From the IMG/VR virus record IMGVR_UViG_2740892422_000007: a DNA stretch of 6,800 bases; one strand, 5' to 3'. Origin of the DNA: a virus. Its lineage: Duplodnaviria > Heunggongvirae > Uroviricota > Caudoviricetes. Of the stretch, positions 1 to 6,800 are shown piece after piece. The notes beneath the pieces are model-generated. The model was not told where the DNA came from. It searched no databases and saw nothing but the letters and a program-made list of their open reading frames with translations. The translations under genes were made by a program, and so were the position numbers. Within the stretch, counting starts at the first letter, position 1. Every line of letters begins with the position of its first letter.

Positions 1-94
1 AGCTGAACAGGAGGGACAGCTGATAGAAACAGAAGCCACTGGAGCACCTCAAAAACACCATCATACACTAAATCAGTAAGTTGGCAGCATCACC
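1..94 (-). mobile_element. IS1 terminal fragment (left-end inverted repeat plus first 13 codons of insA); element continues leftward out of the window
   Basis: Bases 1-94 are the exact reverse complement of 6707-6800 (94/94). The motif GGTGATGCTGCCAACTTACTGAT matches the IS1 left terminus as I recall it. The minus strand of 1-39 reads GTG-initiated VASVSISCPSCSA, the InsA N-terminus. Identity stops exactly at 94/95. Confidence 0.85.
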
Positions 95-656
95 GCCATT
101 CAATATCCGGTGCAGTTGATGTATCAACACGGTTCAGCAACACCCGATACTTTTTCCAGGCTTCCAGCAACAAGGTTTCTTCCTCCGTTGCGATCTCCAG
201 ATCCACAGCATCCTGAAGCGGCGCTATATGCTCACTGGCTATCTGCATCAGGCTGTTTTTTGTTTCTTCCGCCTCCCGGATCCGGAACAGTTTTTCTGCT
301 TCCGTATCCTTCACCCAGGCTGTGCCGTTCCACTTCTGATATTCCCCTCCCGGCGATAACCAGGTAACATTTTCCGGTAACGGACCGAGTTCAGAAATAA
401 ATAACGCGTCGCCGGAAGCCACGTCATAAACCGTTTTACCCCGATGATCTTCAACGAGATGCCACGATGCCTCATCACTGTTGAAAACAGCCACGAAGCC
501 TGCCGGAATATCTGGCGGTGCAATATCGGTACTGTTTGCTGGCAGACCTGTATGAGGCGGAATATATGCGTCACCTTCACCAATAAATTCATTAGTTCCG
601 GCCAGCAGATTATAAATTTTTATGGTCCGTGGTTGTTCACTCATTCTGAATGCCAT
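90..656 (-). CDS. tfa: Tail fiber assembly protein Tfa (lambda-like), 188 aa, 3' end truncated by IS1
   Basis: ORF-track translation [48 protein letters not shown] matches lambdoid Tfa proteins from memory. The start overlaps the stf stop (TAATG on the minus strand at 654-658). The last native codon is W (96-98); the final R codon (93-95) and TGA stop (90-92) are supplied by the IS1 end. Confidence 0.88.
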
Positions 657-896
657 TACGCAAGCCTCACAATATAGTTAAATGCGATGTTTTTGACGGT
701 GTTTTCCGCGTTACCAGCAGCGTTAACGGTGATGGTATGTCCATGTGAACCAATCGCAACGGAGTGCGTATGAGCACCAATACCGACAGTATGTGCGTGT
801 GCACCTGCGCTTGCAGCAGTACCCGATACAGAGTGCGTATGAGCGCCTGCAGAAGAAGTGTTAACACTGTATTTAGAATAATCAGGTGATCCACTT
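656..896 (-). pseudogene. stf: Side tail fiber Stf, C-terminal ~80 codons only; 5' portion deleted
   Basis: The C-terminal 80 residues of track ORF 656..1132 read [81 protein letters not shown], with the repeated G(A/S)H(T/A)H motif and a terminal [11 protein letters not shown] typical of lambda Stf. The upstream 78 residues of that ORF are an out-of-frame read across the terminase fragment. No start codon or RBS exists for this fragment. Confidence 0.8.
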
Positions 897-1799
897 CCAG
901 ATCCCGGTCTTTTCGCAGATATAACGGGCATCAGTAAAGTCCAGCTCCTGCTGACGGATGACGCAGGCATTATGCTCACAGAGATAAAACACGCTGGAGG
1001 GATCATCCGGCATCCATTTGAGGCCAAACGGCGTCTCTTTGTCGCCAAATTTAAGGTACTGCTCCTTCCCGCAGTGCGGGCAGGCAACATGAAAACGCAT
1101 AAAATGCGGGGATTCACTGGCTGCACGCTCAATCTGGCAGGTGCCTCTCACTTTGGGCGTGGAGCCACGGATGGATTTTGGCCAGACAGAGCCTTCAATA
1201 CGCTTATCGCCCAGGAACGTCGGAGAGCCTTCCTGTTCAATATCCTCATCAAAGGCAGCAAGTTCATCATAACCCGCCACATCCACTGACTTTTCACGGT
1301 AGTTTTTTGCCGCTTTACCGCCCAGGCACCAGAAGCCACGCCCATTGGTGAAACGCTTCATGGTGAGCGTGTTATCCCGGTGCTTTTTGCCATACCACGG
1401 GGCCAGCGCCAGCAGCGAAGGAATATCACGGATGGTCGGCTCAACGTGGGTTTTCATAAAGTTCTCGGCATCACCATCCGTCGGCAACCAGATAAGTGTG
1501 TTGCGCTGCTTATGCTCTATGAAGTAGGCATAAACACCCAACAGCATTTTGGAATAACCAACACGGGCAGACTTCACCACATTCACCTCGCGGATGTAGT
1601 CGCTGCCCATCGCATTCATGATGGCCCGCTGAAAGGGCAGTGTTTCCCAGCGCCCTTCCTGGTATGCGGATTCTTTCGGGAGATAGTAATTGGCATCCGC
1701 CCATTCAACGGCGGTCTGTGGCTCCGGCCTGAACAGTGAGCGAAGCCCGGCGCGGACAAAATGCCGCAGCCTGTTAACCTGACTGTTCGATATATTCAC
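882..1799 (-). pseudogene. A: Terminase large subunit gpA, N-terminal 301 codons fused to 4 junk codons (KWIT) and a stop; nuclease and portal-binding C-terminal domains absent
   Basis: Translation MNISNSQVNRLRHFVRAGLRSLFRPEPQTAVEWADANYYLPKESAYQEGRWETLPFQRAIMNAMGSDYIREVNVVKSARVGYSKML is near-identical to lambda gpA from memory. Similarity ends after ...YICEKTGIW (codon 301, about base 897). Full-length gpA is about 641 aa. The 5' end overlaps nu1 by 26 nt, as in lambda. Confidence 0.88.
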
Positions 1800-2319
1800 T
1801 CAGCAACCCCGGTATCAGTTCATCCAGCGCGGCTGCTTTGTTCATGGCTTTGATGATATCCCGTTTCAGGAAATCAACATGTCGGTTTTCCAGTTCCGGA
1901 AAACGCCGCTGCACCGACAGGGGGATCCCGTCGAGAATACTGGCAATTTCACCTGCGATCCGCGACAGCACGAAAGTACAGAATGCGGTTTCCACCACTT
2001 CAGCGGAGTCTCTGGCATTTTTCAGCTCCTGTGCGTCGGCCTGCGCACGCGTAAGTCGATGGCGTTCGTACTCAATAGTCCCTGGCTGGAGATCTGTCTC
2101 GCTGGCCTGCCGCAGTTCTTCAACTTCCCGGCGCAGCTTTTCGTTCTCAATTTCAGCATCCCTTTCGGCATACCATTTTATGACGGCGGCAGAATCATAA
2201 AGCACCTCATTACCCTTGCCACCGCCTCGCAGAACGGGCATTCCCTGTTCCTGCCAGTTCTGAATGGTACGGATACTCGCACCGAAAATGTCAGCCAGCT
2301 GCTTTTTGTTGACTTCCAT
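1774..2319 (-). CDS. nu1: Terminase small subunit Nu1, 181 aa, apparently full length
   Basis: Translation MEVNKKQLADIFGASIRTIQNWQEQGMPVLRGGGKGNEVLYDSAAVIKWYAERDAEIENEKLRREVEELRQ... matches lambda Nu1 over its whole length apart from a few substitutions (from memory). Length and the 26-nt overlap with A are as in lambda. Confidence 0.92.
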   Translation of the reverse strand: MEVNKKQLADIFGASIRTIQNWQEQGMPVLRGGGKGNEVLYDSAAVIKWYAERDAEIENEKLRREVEELRQASETDLQPGTIEYERHRLTRAQADAQELKNARDSAEVVETAFCTFVLSRIAGEIASILDGIPLSVQRRFPELENRHVDFLKRDIIKAMNKAAALDELIPGLLSEYIEQSG

Positions 2320-2560
2320 TGTTCATTCCACGGACAAAAACAGAGAAAGGAAACGACAAAGGCCAAAAAGCCCGCTTTCAGCACCTGTCGTTTCCTTTCT
2401 TTTCAGGGGGTATTTTAAATAAAAACATTAAGTTACGACGAAGAAGAACGGAAACACCTTAAACCGGAAAATTTTCATAAATAGCGAAAACCCGCGAGGT
2501 CGCCGCCCCGTAACCTGTCGGATCACCGGAAAGGACCCGTAAAGTGATAATGATTATCAT
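2320..2560 (-). other. cos region: cosB with Nu1-binding R-element repeats, cosN, and the right-end/cosQ side
   Basis: It lies immediately upstream of nu1. The lambda 12-nt cohesive-end sequence GGGCGGCGACCT is present on the minus strand at 2497-2508. Perfect 14-bp inverted repeats GAAAGGAAACGACA (2345-2358) and TGTCGTTTCCTTTC (2386-2399) resemble cosB R elements, and a third CGTTTCC-type element sits near 2440-2452. A 15-bp palindrome TGATAATGATTATCA is at 2545-2559. Confidence 0.8.
2497..2508 (-). other. cosN cohesive-end core (GGGCGGCGACCT on the minus strand)
   Basis: Exact 12-mer match to the lambda cohesive end as recalled, about 190 nt upstream of the nu1 start codon, which is the lambda spacing. 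Confidence 0.75.
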
Positions 2561-2707
2561 CTACATATCACAACGTGCGTGGAGGCCATCAAACCACGTC
2601 AAATAATCAATTATGACGCAGGTATCGTATTAATTGATCTGCATCAACTTAACGTAAAAACAACTTCAGACAATACAAATCAGCGACACTGAATACGGGG
2701 CAACCTC

Positions 2708-2941
2708 ATGTCAACGAAGAACAGAACCCGCAGAACAACAACCCGCAACATCCGCTTTCCTAACCAAATGATTGAACAAATTAACATCGCTCTTGAGCAA
2801 AAAGGGTCCGGGAATTTCTCAGCCTGGGTCATTGAAGCCTGCCGCCGGAGACTGTGCTCAGAAAAAAGAGTTTCTTCTGAAGCAAACAAAGAAAAGAGTG
2901 ACATTACTGAATTGCTCAGAAAACAGGTCAGACCAGATTGA
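2708..2941 (+). CDS. Small ribbon-helix-helix-like DNA-binding protein, 77 aa, hypothetical
   Basis: Track ORF MSTKNRTRRTTTRNIRFPNQMIEQINIALEQKGSGNFSAWVIEACRRRL... has a basic N-terminus, a short strand-like NIRFP, then two helix-like segments, which is the Arc/MetJ/CopG pattern. Fold assignment is by eye only. Sits 42 bp upstream of, and on the same strand as, the DUF1398-like gene. Confidence 0.55.
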   Translation: MSTKNRTRRTTTRNIRFPNQMIEQINIALEQKGSGNFSAWVIEACRRRLCSEKRVSSEANKEKSDITELLRKQVRPD

Positions 2942-2998
2942 AGCAATTTAGATAATCGTGCAGACTACGCCCCCTCATATCACATGGAAGGTTTATCT

Positions 2999-3409
2999 AT
3001 GGATCAGGTAGTCATTTTTAAACAAATATTTGATAAAGTTCGAAACGATTTAAACTATCAATGGTTTTATTCTGAGCTAAAACGTCACAATGTCTCACAT
3101 TACATTTACTATTTAGCCACAGAGAATGTTCATATTGTATTAAAAAATGATAATACAGTGTTATTAAAGGGCCTAAAAAACATTGTGTCTGTCAAATTTT
3201 CAAAGGATAGGCATCTTATAGAAACGACCTCTAATAAGCTGAAATCCAGAGAGATCACATTTCAGGAATACAGAAGAAACCTTGCTAAAGCAGGAGTTTT
3301 TCGGTGGGTTACAAATATCCACGAACAAAAAAGATATTACTATACCTTTGATAATTCATTACTATTTACTGAAAGCATCCAGAAAACTACACAGATCTTA
3401 CCACGCTAA
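2999..3409 (+). CDS. DUF1398-like prophage protein (YbcV/YdfO-like), 136 aa from the ATG at 2999; track ORF begins at an upstream in-frame ATG at 2984
   Basis: Track ORF 2984..3409. The second ATG at 2999 is preceded by GGAAGG 9 nt upstream; the first ATG has no Shine-Dalgarno. Position next to cos/nu1 and a 136-aa length fit the YbcV/YdfO family from memory; family assignment not verified. Confidence 0.65.
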
Positions 3410-3418
3410 ACCATAACG

Positions 3419-3447
3419 TCCGGCTTCTCTCACTCCTGAGCCGGACT
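3419..3447 (+). terminator. Candidate stem-loop between the convergent DUF1398-like and Gns genes
   Basis: GTCCGGCT ... AGCCGGAC 8-bp inverted repeat with a 13-nt loop, 10 bp after the DUF1398-like stop. The downstream T-run is weak (TGCATTGGTTT). Confidence 0.3.
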
Positions 3448-3560
3448 GCATTGGTTTAATAAAAACCATCAACAATTGTGATTTAGATATTCGGAACCAT
3501 TCAAATATAACAAAACCCCGTAAAAACGAGGTTTATGGATAAATTTTATTATTGAATACA

Positions 3561-3734
3561 TCAGATTAAATTAATCTTGACATCATAGCTTTCAAGACCC
3601 GTCATTTTTTCCCGTGCGGTAAACTGAATACTGGTAACTTCTTTCCCGGTCTTTTTCTTAAGTTCAATAATTTTTTTTGTTATATATTCAGAAATATCTG
3701 CTTCTGCTTTTATTTTTAAGTTTTCAATATTCAT
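3561..3734 (-). CDS. Gns-family small protein (GnsA/GnsB-like), 57 aa; absent from the supplied ORF track
   Basis: Hand translation of the minus strand: MNIENLKIKAEADISEYITKKIIELKKKTGKEVTSIQFTAREKMTGLESYDVKINLI, then TGA at 3561-3563. Start ATG at 3732-3734 is preceded by AAGAGGAAA. Length and the REKMTGLESYDVKI segment match GnsA/GnsB as recalled. Confidence 0.7.
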   Translation of the reverse strand: MNIENLKIKAEADISEYITKKIIELKKKTGKEVTSIQFTAREKMTGLESYDVKINLI

Positions 3735-3782
3735 CATTTCCTCTTTTAGTCTGTTATGACTTTCCAGTTACACAGTAAGTCG

Positions 3783-3811
3783 ATTATATGGTGCAAACGT
3801 GTAAAAGATAA
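3783..3811 (-). promoter_or_regulatory. Candidate sigma70 promoter for the Gns gene
   Basis: Perfect TATAAT on the minus strand (plus 3783-3788), with a weak -35 TTATCT at 17-bp spacing (plus 3806-3811), about 45 nt upstream of the Gns start. Confidence 0.35.
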
Positions 3812-3905
3812 GATGAAACATCGCAATAATCAACATACGATAGTCTAAATTTTACACAAACAGACAAAGAGAATTTTCCTGAATTATCAATGCAATAGCA
3901 TCAAA

Positions 3906-4061
3906 TCAACTCAAGAGCCTTATTGCTGCTTCCAGAATTTCTTCTGAAGTAACATGTCGATCCGCGGCTACATAAATGACTTTATGATCTCCGGTCAGAG
4001 ATGGAAACCCTGCGGCCATTACAGTAAGGTGTGTTTTTTCGCCATTTGGATATTCACGCAT
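3906..4061 (-). CDS. Small hypothetical protein, 51 aa from the ATG at 4059-4061 (MREYPNGEKTHLTVMAAGFPSLTGDHKVIYVAADRHVTSEEILEAAIRLLS); in-frame extension possible to ATG 4134-4136 (76 aa) or the track's TTG at 4176-4178 (90 aa)
   Basis: Track ORF 3906..4178, which starts at TTG inside the cspI terminator hairpin, so that start is unlikely. The internal ATG at 4061 has GGAG about 11 nt upstream. The segment 4100-4136 contains A7 and T8 homopolymers. No family recognised. A 51-aa size fits the small ynfN-type gene found between gnsB and cspI in Qin, but that is memory of gene order only. Confidence 0.4.
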   Translation of the reverse strand: MREYPNGEKTHLTVMAAGFPSLTGDHKVIYVAADRHVTSEEILEAAIRLLS

Positions 4062-4180
4062 GATGGTGTTAACTCCAGTCATCGCTGGCACTACCACTGC
4101 TGGTTCAGAGTTAAAAAAAACTATGATTTTTTTCATGATGTTACCGTAGTATGTGAGTATCCATCGAATAGACACCAAGC

Positions 4181-4200
4181 AAAAAAGCTCCCGAAGGAGC
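4181..4200 (-). terminator. Rho-independent terminator downstream of the cspI-like gene
   Basis: GC stem GCTCC / GGAGC with CGAA tetraloop at 4187-4200. On the minus strand it is followed directly by TTTTTT (plus A6 at 4181-4186). On the plus strand it is followed by an interrupted T-rich run, so it may act in both directions. Confidence 0.55.
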
Positions 4201-4407
4201 CTTCATTTTCACTTTTTTAAATCCAACGACAGACGGCTGGCATTTAAGTATTGTGAAATATTATCAAATGTAATCATCATTGATTTACAAAAGATACATT
4301 TTGCCCCGAAAGGATTCATGTCAGAAACATCAAAAGATGATGTTCTATACTGGGAACCATGACAACACGGGCATCTAAAGTGAATATGGTTTGTAATATT
4401 GTCTACC

Positions 4408-4620
4408 TCAAAGCGCCACTACATGAACAGCGGCAGGACCTTTAGGTCCGTTCTCAATACCAAATTCAACTTCCTGATTCTCAGTTAATGTTTTGAAATC
4501 GTTGCTCTGAATTGCTGAGAAATGGACAAACACATCTTTGCTGCCATCTTTCGGCGTGATGAAACCAAAACCTTTTTCAGGGTTAAACCATTTCACTAAA
4601 CCAGTCATTTTGTTAGACAT
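4408..4620 (-). CDS. cspI: CspA-family cold shock protein, 70 aa, CspI-like
   Basis: Translation [70 protein letters not shown] carries the RNP1-like KGFGFI and RNP2-like VFVHF motifs. The [14 protein letters not shown] variant and the lysis-gene neighbourhood match Qin CspI as I recall it. Start context AAAGGTAATAATT-ATG resembles the cspA leader. Confidence 0.85.
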
Positions 4621-4735
4621 AATTATTACCTTTTGAAGAAATTAGCCCTTGGGCAGAATGGTCCGAAAAAAAATATCAGAGAGAAAAACCAACAAGGAAA
4701 TCTCAAGAGGTACAAATAATAAAATTATAACAATG
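4621..4735 (-). promoter_or_regulatory. Candidate cspI promoter (extended -10) and roughly 100-nt AT-rich 5' leader
   Basis: Minus-strand TGTTATAAT (plus 4724-4732) is a TGn-TATAAT extended -10. A long leader is characteristic of cspA-family genes. No experimental support. Confidence 0.4.
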
Positions 4736-4982
4736 ACTGCTTCAGATAAATTTGTAACAAACCAGAACACCATTAACGCATGATTAACCACCCATAGCAA
4801 GGATTACTTTTGTAAAGAAAAACACAGCAATGAAAGAATAGCTTTATTTATTAATAAAACGTGTCATTCTGATTAAGACCTTTTATCTTACCCTTAAGAT
4901 TTCAGGAATTTTGGCTCATGGAAGAGTCCTTTTTATTTAAATTTTACATTCCGCGATGTAAATGTTCCGATTTAATATTACC

Positions 4983-6006
<1,024 letters not shown>

Positions 6007-6010
<4 letters not shown>

Positions 6011-6318
6011 AGATATTTATGATGAGGACGCTCGTGCTTATTGGCAGGATTTTCAATCTTAAAGGAGTACTGATGCTGCAGATAAGACTCAACTTTTTCT
6101 GACAATTTTTCTGCTACTTCCAGGAAGACTTGCCGGACGCTCCTTCTGGCTGCTGCCTCATAAAACTCCAGCGCAGCTCCTTCAACACGGTCCATGGCGA
6201 CATCCAGGTCAAAAATTTCACCGTCAAAGCGTTCTTTGTCCTGTAAGGCTACAGTTACCGTAACTTTATTCTCAAAATTACGGACTCCTTTCACAACCAG
6301 TTCATAGTCTTGAGTCAT
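6007..6318 (-). CDS. DUF1327-like prophage protein (YdfR-like), 103 aa, function unknown
   Basis: Track ORF with strong RBS GAGGAGAG upstream of the ATG at 6316-6318. Its stop overlaps the endolysin start (ATGA at 6007-6010). Length and position between holin and endolysin match ydfR of Qin from memory; acidic, no transmembrane segment. Confidence 0.7.
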
Positions 6319-6322
6319 TGGA

Positions 6323-6538
6323 TTACTCTCCTCTCGCAGCCTTACGCCTGTCTTCTTTAATCTTGAAATAAAGATTTGTCAGATACGTCAGCAGGCCAAA
6401 AACCAGGCTACCCAGCACACCGATTGCAGCCCACTGTGACGGAGTTACTTTATCGAGTAACTGCAATGCCCAGAAACCAGCATTACCCGCCGATGTGCCA
6501 TAGGCAACACCTGTTGTTAACTTATCCATTGATTTCAT
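6323..6538 (-). CDS. S: Class II pinholin (S21-like) with dual-start motif, 71 aa (68 aa from the second start)
   Basis: Real start is [71 protein letters not shown]. Two in-frame ATGs at 6536-6538 and 6527-6529 are separated by K-S, RBS GGGGTGAGG lies upstream, and there are two transmembrane segments with a basic C-terminus. The track ORF's 25-residue N-terminal extension is a run-on, not coding. Confidence 0.85.
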
Positions 6539-6706
6539 ATCCTCACCCCGATGTACACGGATGGTGCAATATGTTTGAAAAGATCGGAGTCTACGGGGTA
6601 GTTTTGACAGCACACGTTGTTCTCAACGGCGCTAAAAAAACATACACATTAAAAATGTGGGTAATTATTTTGAAAGAAAGTCATATATAAAATAATAATA
6701 CGAGAA

Positions 6707-6800
6707 GGTGATGCTGCCAACTTACTGATTTAGTGTATGATGGTGTTTTTGAGGTGCTCCAGTGGCTTCTGTTTCTATCAGCTGTCCCTCCTGTTCAGCT
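6707..6800 (+). mobile_element. IS1 terminal fragment (left-end inverted repeat plus first 13 codons of insA); element continues rightward out of the window
   Basis: GGTGATGCTGCCAACTTACTGAT... begins at 6707. The 94 bp are the exact reverse complement of bases 1-94. GTG-initiated VASVSISCPSCSA reads on the plus strand from 6762. Confidence 0.85.

Follow-up and report, generated by a model that had tools for sequence, protein, structure and literature searches.

Apparent packaging module of a Qin-type cryptic prophage, with a lambda-type cos site beside a truncated terminase gene

A cos site that lies next to a full-length nu1 and a truncated gene A raises the question of whether a prophage remnant with a crippled terminase can still be served by the terminase of another phage. 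The first-pass annotation of the window (the whole 6,800-nucleotide stretch of DNA analysed here) had proposed that such a chromosomal cos could be cut in trans by a superinfecting or co-resident lambdoid phage, and that adjacent host DNA on the nu1/A side could then be packaged. We consider it highly probable that the region represents the packaging module from the left end (cos, nu1 and a stump of A) of a cryptic lambdoid prophage of the Qin type from E. coli/Shigella, carrying what appears to be a sequence-intact, passive cos, from which we infer cleavage in trans, packaging and their outcome. The identity of the region, its anatomy, and the presence of its cosB haplotype in deposited phage genomes are established below.

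Identity of the region and state of its terminase genes

The window is the base-for-base reverse complement of the entire draft contig JRGC01000019.1 (assembly GCA_000754855.1). Its two ends, 1-95 and 6706-6800, are mutual reverse complements and represent inverted IS1 termini. Contigs of the same kind in other assemblies (sister contigs) matched the window from 95 to 6706 only, diverging exactly at the IS1 ends, and a related contig (L019) carried a DDE_Tnp_IS1 ORF at the corresponding contig end. A composite IS1 transposon, considered on account of the inverted termini, was rejected as unsupported; the window, a complete draft contig, breaks off at repeats, and the sister contigs end at different IS1 positions.

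Comparison with the Qin prophage of E. coli K-12 MG1655 revealed 99.76% identity over 4916 bp (window 1791-6706). The gene order nohA, ynfO, ydfO, gnsB, ynfN, cspI, rzpQ, rrrQ, ydfR, essQ is common to both, so that synteny and near-identity alike place the window in Qin. Linkage to ydfJ/ydfI was present in the related locus L018 and in strain FORC 064, the window itself stopping in IS1; the same fusion of truncated A that the window carries adjoined ydfJ/ydfI in a 59.7-kb contig. The features of the window are as follows.

1-95, minus strand: IS1 terminus (contig end), reverse complement of 6706-6800; a packaging path would meet IS1 here, 2.4 kb from cosN
90-656, minus strand: tfaQ, tail fibre assembly gene (Pfam Caudo_TAP), last codons replaced by the IS1 end; 188 aa, versus 576 nt (191 aa) in K-12
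656-895, minus strand: what remains of the 3' part of an stfQ-like side tail fibre gene, matching the tfaQ/stfQ region of K-12 at 96%; relatives have it annotated as 'tail fiber protein'
896-899, no strand assigned: deletion joint, A codon 301 fused to what is left of the side tail fibre gene at its 3' end, with loss of all head and tail genes
882-1799, minus strand: truncated gene A (A'), ATPase domain only
1774-2319, minus strand: nu1 (nohA), terminase small subunit, 181 aa, full length
2344-2538, minus strand: cos region
2708-2941, plus strand: ynfO
2984-3409, plus strand: ydfO
3561-3737, minus strand: gnsB
inside ORF 3906-4178, minus strand: ynfN
4408-4620, minus strand: cspI
4983-5480, minus strand: rzpQ
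5477-6010, minus strand: rrrQ
6007-6318, minus strand: ydfR
inside ORF 6323-6613, minus strand: essQ

Along the minus strand, cosQ-cosN-I2-cosB comes first and is followed by nu1 and by codons 1-301 of A. The head and tail genes appear to have been lost through an internal deletion, and the remnant to have been cut by IS1 elements on both sides.

The state of the two terminase genes bears out the first-pass description of a full-length nu1 beside a crippled terminase. The Nu1 protein of the window covered the whole Pfam profile Phage_Nu1 (PF07471; positions 1-164 of 164, E 4e-101, 336 bits) and differed from lambda Nu1 by two substitutions, A75T and L132I. A' comprises 301 codons of lambda gpA with three substitutions (D185E, E245K, and T263M), followed by four foreign codons and a stop, and the identity of gene A to lambda ends after nucleotide 904. 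Pfam search of A' detected GpA_ATPase (residues 47-285). GpA_nuclease, which lambda gpA has at residues 322-600 in addition to the ATPase domain, was not found in A' by this search because its ORF ends at residue 305. A functional gpA combines an ATPase, a C-terminal endonuclease and a portal-binding end, and A' does not provide this set. Judged by its domains, A' is predicted to be unable to cut DNA, and with A' devoid of the nuclease the resident nu1 and A' would add nothing essential.

The position of the second IS1 bears on transcription of the module. It begins at 6706, 168 bp upstream of essQ. In K-12 the sequence runs on beyond essQ for about 1.9 kb until it reaches the Q gene, and both the lysis genes and nu1 are placed downstream of Q. 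In the strain of the window IS1 would sever nu1 and A' from the Q-dependent late promoter, and since it lies upstream of essQ, transcription of the remnant as a late operon is improbable.

The cos site and its variants among lambda-like phages

We scrutinized the cos region for each element that lambda terminase uses. The elements, in order from cosQ to R1, were assigned as follows.

2532-2538, minus strand: cosQ (GGGTCCT on the minus strand; lambda bp -30 to -24 from the left nick), identical to lambda
2497-2508, minus strand: cosN cohesive-end 12-mer GGGCGGCGACCT, identical to lambda and K-12 Qin
2459-2491, minus strand: I2 spacer with a bend (lambda bp 18-50), identical to lambda, no indels
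2445-2460, minus strand: R3, the Nu1 binding site closest to cosN (about lambda bp 49-64), carrying C53T at 2456
2423-2435, no strand assigned: I1, IHF site core between R3 and R2 (approximate; lambda bp 74-86), core identical to lambda, with A73G at 2436 just outside
2385-2400, plus strand: R2, AGAAAGGAAACGACAG in lambda orientation, identical to lambda and inverted relative to R3 and R1
2344-2359, minus strand: R1, TTGTCGTTTCCTTTCT, first base C>T relative to lambda (2359)

The position of I1 was inferred from the IHF consensus, and the 7-bp cosQ coordinates follow the lambda literature. The nicking site of cosN reaches a few bp beyond the 12-mer on either side. The 12-mer occurs once in the window, on the minus strand at the positions given. 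Taken alone it is weak evidence, as 42 of 200 shuffled sequences had a match when two mismatches were allowed; here it lies within 421 bp of 98.8% identity to phage lambda (E=0) and within a 1975-bp collinear lambda match of 97.8% identity.

No difference from lambda was found in the 233 bp left of cosN (233/233 identical, including cosQ), in cosN, or in I2. The role of cosQ is in termination of packaging, for which it is needed at the downstream cos (PMC4669245), and its GGGTCCT positions were invariant in 12 of 12 sampled phages. I2, which sets the distance between cosN and cosB, is critical together with that exact spacing (PMC4856287); bp 13-52 are identical to lambda with no indels. The R3-I1-R2-R1 architecture of cosB is retained, with R2 inverted and with no indels. 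The positions 56, 58, and 59 of R3, named as critical (PMC4669245), are of the lambda type, and R1 is regarded as accessory in the same work. Five substitutions relative to lambda are present in cosB.

2456: lambda bp 53, C>T, in R3 (edge/core C)
2436: lambda bp 73, A>G, just outside the I1 IHF core
2407: lambda bp 102, T>C, near the inner edge of R2
2372: lambda bp 137, A>G, between R2 and R1
2359: lambda bp 150, C>T, first base of R1

With these results the claims of the first-pass annotation about the site can be judged. The lambda 12-mer that it placed at 2497-2508 is there, unchanged and on the minus strand. Its description of the site as almost unmutated relative to lambda holds for the left flank, cosN, and I2, and needs correction for cosB with its five substitutions. 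The inverted repeats, given as 14/14 bp at 2345-2358 and 2386-2399, are real and correspond to R1 and R2; their length is 15/15 (2344-2358 and 2386-2400), one shorter than the 16/16 of lambda, since the outer base of R1 is changed from C to T. By its sequence, then, the site holds every element of a cos of lambda specificity.

We examined whether the cosB variants are harmless by aligning the same cos region from 12 deposited lambda-like phage genomes. All five variants co-occur in two of these phages, 2H10 and PhiR70_1. The 53T allele is also found in PhiR29_1, 73G is the majority allele (8 of the 12 phages), and 102C is present in 7 of the 12. Both 2H10 and PhiR70_1 encode a Nu1 with 100% identity to that of the window, and from nu1 to nucleotide 904 of A the window and PhiR70_1 differ at 8 of 1424 nucleotides. 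Both phages were taken to be viable from their database records, which list them as complete phage genomes with a host. As a separate observation, the cohesive end of PhiR70_1 reads GGGCGGAGACCT (C>A at position 7), and the other 11 sampled phages keep the lambda 12-mer.

The variants bear on the alternative of a dead cos, a relic that no helper could use because its cosB is altered, most seriously by C53T in the core of R3, and because the remnant has no terminase of its own. C53T alters the C of the CGTTTCC core that is common to R1, R2 and lambda R3, and could cause lower affinity or dependence on IHF; a single change in R3, at bp 58, makes lambda IHF-dependent (PMC4669245). K-12 Qin carries a different change at the adjacent base, G54A in place of C53T, as decay might give. 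Against this, 53T, 73G, 102C, 137G, and 150T together make up the exact cosB haplotype of 2H10 and PhiR70_1, and the K-12 allele 54A, like 53T, recurs in a phage (PhiR42_1). The Nu1 that accompanies the haplotype in those phages is that of the window, different from lambda Nu1 only at residues 75 and 132, and cosQ, cosN, I2, R2, and the spacing are unchanged. We therefore regard the five changes, found in phages with an identical Nu1, as a natural haplotype that is unlikely to be disabling, and a dead cos as very unlikely. Of the disabling changes for which an alignment might be searched, there are none in cosN, and the five in cosB are those just described. The haplotype should also be cleavable by lambda's own Nu1, whose two differences (A75T, L132I) fall outside the N-terminal DNA-binding domain.

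Cutting, packaging and recombination at a resident cos

A natural-haplotype cos leads to the question of what a helper terminase would do with it. Helper terminase is known to package repressed, unexcised chromosomal tandem prophages from cos to cos, at 1.6-2.3 chromosomes per cell (PMC4669245, Table 5). After binding cosB and nicking cosN, the enzyme remains attached to the end that bears cosB, and translocation starts from that end (PMC4856287; PMC4669245). On the basis of this published helper packaging and of the sequence, cutting of the window cos in trans by a helper of lambda specificity is very likely. When a phage with lambda-type Nu1 and gpA grows in the cell, Nu1 and IHF would bind R3-I1-R2, and gpA would nick cosN at 2497-2508. 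The terminase would then keep to the cosB end, and the DNA would pass in the order nu1, A', stf', tfaQ', IS1, and beyond. As cosB lies at lower coordinates than cosN, packaging would proceed toward decreasing coordinates, which agrees with the direction first proposed.

How such an event would end depends on the DNA ahead of the motor, since a completed particle requires a downstream cosQ-cosN (PMC4669245). No second cos was found in the remaining 2.4 kb of the window. FORC 064, whose 241-bp cos region is 100% identical, was used as a proxy for the DNA further downstream; a 90-bp cosQ-cosN-I2 probe had no match in its 45 kb downstream, where only chance-level 12-mers with two mismatches occurred. 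Dead-end heads of the docL kind are therefore expected. The docL particles, reportedly described by Sternberg and Weisberg in 1975 and by Sternberg in 1986, arise from excision-defective lambda prophages with no terminating cos; PMC8008629 cites the 1975 paper for this. At the window cos, heads would likewise fill without a terminating cut and give mostly non-infectious particles. In the sole report of this kind that we found, purified lambda particles from a K-12 host contained 'almost exclusively' lambda DNA and about 25 kb on each side (PMC7667829). There was no signal away from lambda, so stable encapsidation from a cryptic cos is at best rare. Productive transfer of flanking DNA is a plausible hypothesis. 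On the packaging side of FORC 064 (L028, 5106-50000) lie pinQ, ydfK, ydfJ, ydfI, rspR, ydfG, dcp, marRAB, eamA, the lsr operon for quorum sensing, and hipBA.

The more frequent outcome may be a double-strand break that stimulates recombination between an incoming phage and the prophage remnant, and we consider this break a likelier practical result than transfer. In crosses of lambda with DLP12, 10 of 19 junctions adjoined cos (PMC3945230). The window itself has a change of affinity exactly at cosN (2497-2508; flanks 896-2741). To the left it is identical to lambda, K-12 Qin, and mEp332, and to the right it is nearly identical to PhiR70_1. Differences from lambda numbered 0/233 on the left and 38/1613 on the right (Fisher p 0.011), whereas those from PhiR70_1 numbered 10/233 and 10/1613, respectively (Fisher p 5e-5). 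Recombination between different lambdoid phages at cos, or end-joining there, would agree with such a switch. A cos remnant would thus be a likely break site and recombination hot spot upon infection by a lambda-type phage, and would feed the evolution of mosaic phages.

Sites of this kind are common. A lambda-type cos, matching the 241-bp region, was found in 4593 of 5426 complete E. coli genomes (85%), with a median of 2 and a maximum of 8 per genome, and 948 genomes had Qin-like regions covering at least 80% of the window. The A'-stf joint was absent from the 5426 complete genomes and was recorded in 35 blocks of draft assemblies. A 30-mer spanning the IS1/tfaQ junction had no match in the species-representative genome collection. 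The abundance of sister contigs bounded by IS1, taken with the lack of the joint in the complete genomes, hints at a lineage rich in IS1 that falls outside those genomes, perhaps Shigella. The 446-bp cos region was identical in all eight related contigs that were fetched. Three internal deletions of Qin-type prophages differ from each other: in the window A codon 301 is joined to the stf 3' end, in K-12 (L001, about 5840) nu1 codon about 176 is joined to stfQ, and in FORC 064 (L028, about 5807-6157) the end of nu1 is joined to a J-related fragment. None of the three is derivable from another.

Such retention might be taken to mean that cos and nu1 are kept by selection, either as a hitch-hiking satellite (an island like a cos-PICI) or as a launch site for high-frequency, one-directional transfer. 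Three independent deletions all spare cos and essentially all of nu1, the cos region is invariant among the related contigs and present in most E. coli genomes, commonly twice, and a chromosomal cos is used efficiently in trans (PMC4669245). We nevertheless judge selection most unlikely. Neither the window nor the related 20.9-kb locus has an integrase, excision, replication or packaging-redirection gene. Qin, with its single cos, is far under the minimum packageable length, there is no downstream cos within 45 kb in FORC 064, and the sequencing of lambda particles gave no such signal (PMC7667829). The Qin variants were moreover sampled by homology to the cos region itself, so that its retention is partly ascertainment, and the divergence from live phages (8/1424) is tiny, leaving little time for decay; for both reasons the retention of cos and nu1 across three deletions was not adopted as proof of selection. 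The full-length nu1 appears best explained by the short time since decay began, in view of this very low divergence, and retained function need not be invoked.

The possibility that cos and truncated A are a chimeric contig, assembled from reads of an intact lambdoid prophage or of lambda control DNA, has next to no chance of being correct: the window is a short draft contig ending in repeats and lambda control DNA does contaminate public records (48.5-kb 'plasmids' of Paenibacillus, Stenotrophomonas and Salmonella), but the identical 305-aa A' fusion protein occurs in all 35 blocks of the assembly collection mentioned above (independent NCBI assemblies and Logan runs), the 59.7-kb contig ties it to ydfJ/ydfI, and the window differs from lambda at 44 of 1975 positions.

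Searches of plasmid records gave matches to Qin-like 'plasmids' and to lambda-sized 'plasmids' in unrelated genera. A plasmid-borne module was rejected as an identity for the region, those records being judged artefacts of assembly or contamination. CP088536.1 (E. coli pE16EC0562-2) is a 19,693-bp 'circular plasmid' of Qin genes, from tfaQ to relB, with IS5; either misassembly or excision of Qin as a circle could account for it. NZ_CP069920.1 (Klebsiella oxytoca FDAARGOS_1334 'plasmid unnamed9'), a 9,520-bp linear record, matches window 2732-6705 with 100.0% identity and extends beyond it into cspB-cspF-Q-rem-hokD of Qin, probably through contamination of the assembly with E. coli DNA or very recent transfer. 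'Plasmids' of 48,499-48,502 bp from Paenibacillus sonchi, Salmonella enterica, and Stenotrophomonas maltophilia match the lambda nu1/A/cos region and look like lambda control DNA carried into the assemblies.

Returning to a passive cos that is cut in trans, the packaging reading of the first-pass annotation survives in part. In its favour are the elements of lambda specificity, the natural haplotype, the precedent for action in trans, and the direction; against it are the lack of a downstream cos, the particle sequencing, and the commonness of such sites (85% of genomes). The feature is moreover an already known and ordinary one, Qin cos/nohA being a textbook element of cryptic prophages. Taken as it is, the window matters little, as one more copy of that remnant, and it serves as a caveat for the calling of 'intact' prophages or packaging sites from sequence alone. 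A bolder reading is that silent cos sites of cryptic prophages may serve as starting points from which phages that supply lambda specificity in trans package host DNA in one direction, a cos-phage counterpart of lateral transduction that would include co-oriented pairs transduced as mature particles. We hold this to be rather unlikely. If it were true, a 48-kb headful from the Qin cos would carry ydfJ-dcp-marRAB-lsr-hipBA in strains like FORC 064. Because most E. coli have at least two lambda-type cos sites, pairs that share one orientation and lie 38-51 kb apart may exist in some genomes, and such pairs would then give mature-particle transduction near one per infected cell. Should dead-end or cos-to-cos packaging be appreciable, it would constitute an overlooked route of transfer for the chromosome beside cryptic prophages, here including the mar and lsr loci.

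Comparison with known systems

The closest relative is the cos/nohA of K-12 Qin (b1548 neighbourhood), which has the same cosQ, cosN, I2, A73G and T102C as the window. In K-12, nu1 passes straight into stfQ at about codon 176, and the resulting NohA of 189 aa contains nothing of A, whereas the window keeps full nu1 and 301 codons of A, and less of stf. As this fusion differs from that of K-12, the deletion in the window is independent. The two also differ in the R3 variant (C53T in the window, G54A in K-12), and IS1 cuts tfaQ and the region upstream of essQ in the window.

The cos/nohD of DLP12 in K-12 is similar in that a defective lambdoid prophage carries cos, nu1, and part of A at an identity to lambda that is reported as very high. 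Lambda infection probably leads to cutting of this cos, around which recombination junctions are clustered (PMC3945230). It belongs to another prophage at another chromosomal site, with bor, ybcV and ybcW as neighbours instead of ynfO, ydfO, gnsB and cspI.

Helper packaging in the assay of the Feiss laboratory resembles what is proposed for the window, as a repressed, unexcised chromosomal cos-lambda is cut in trans and packaged from the cosB side (PMC4669245). That assay has a second co-oriented cos one genome length downstream, and mature virions therefore form; the Qin remnant has a single cos. The docL particles of excision-defective lambda match the prediction for the window in starting at a chromosomal cos and running into host DNA with no terminating cos. 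In docL, however, the cos is that of an induced, locally amplified prophage, whereas the window cos would be silent, unamplified, and served in trans, and its yields should therefore be below those of docL.

The cos-PICIs are likewise chromosomal elements that rely on the terminase and cosN of a lambda-like helper (PMC9026076). They excise, replicate, and use Rpp to redirect TerS to a different cosB-like site, whereas the window has a phage-type cosB, and ORFs or Pfam families of such satellites were found neither in the window nor in the related 20.9-kb locus. Finally, E. coli C was used as the indicator strain in helper packaging work as it has little defective lambda-like prophage material and no cosN of lambda (PMC4669245), a choice which implies that the field is well aware of this material in other strains.
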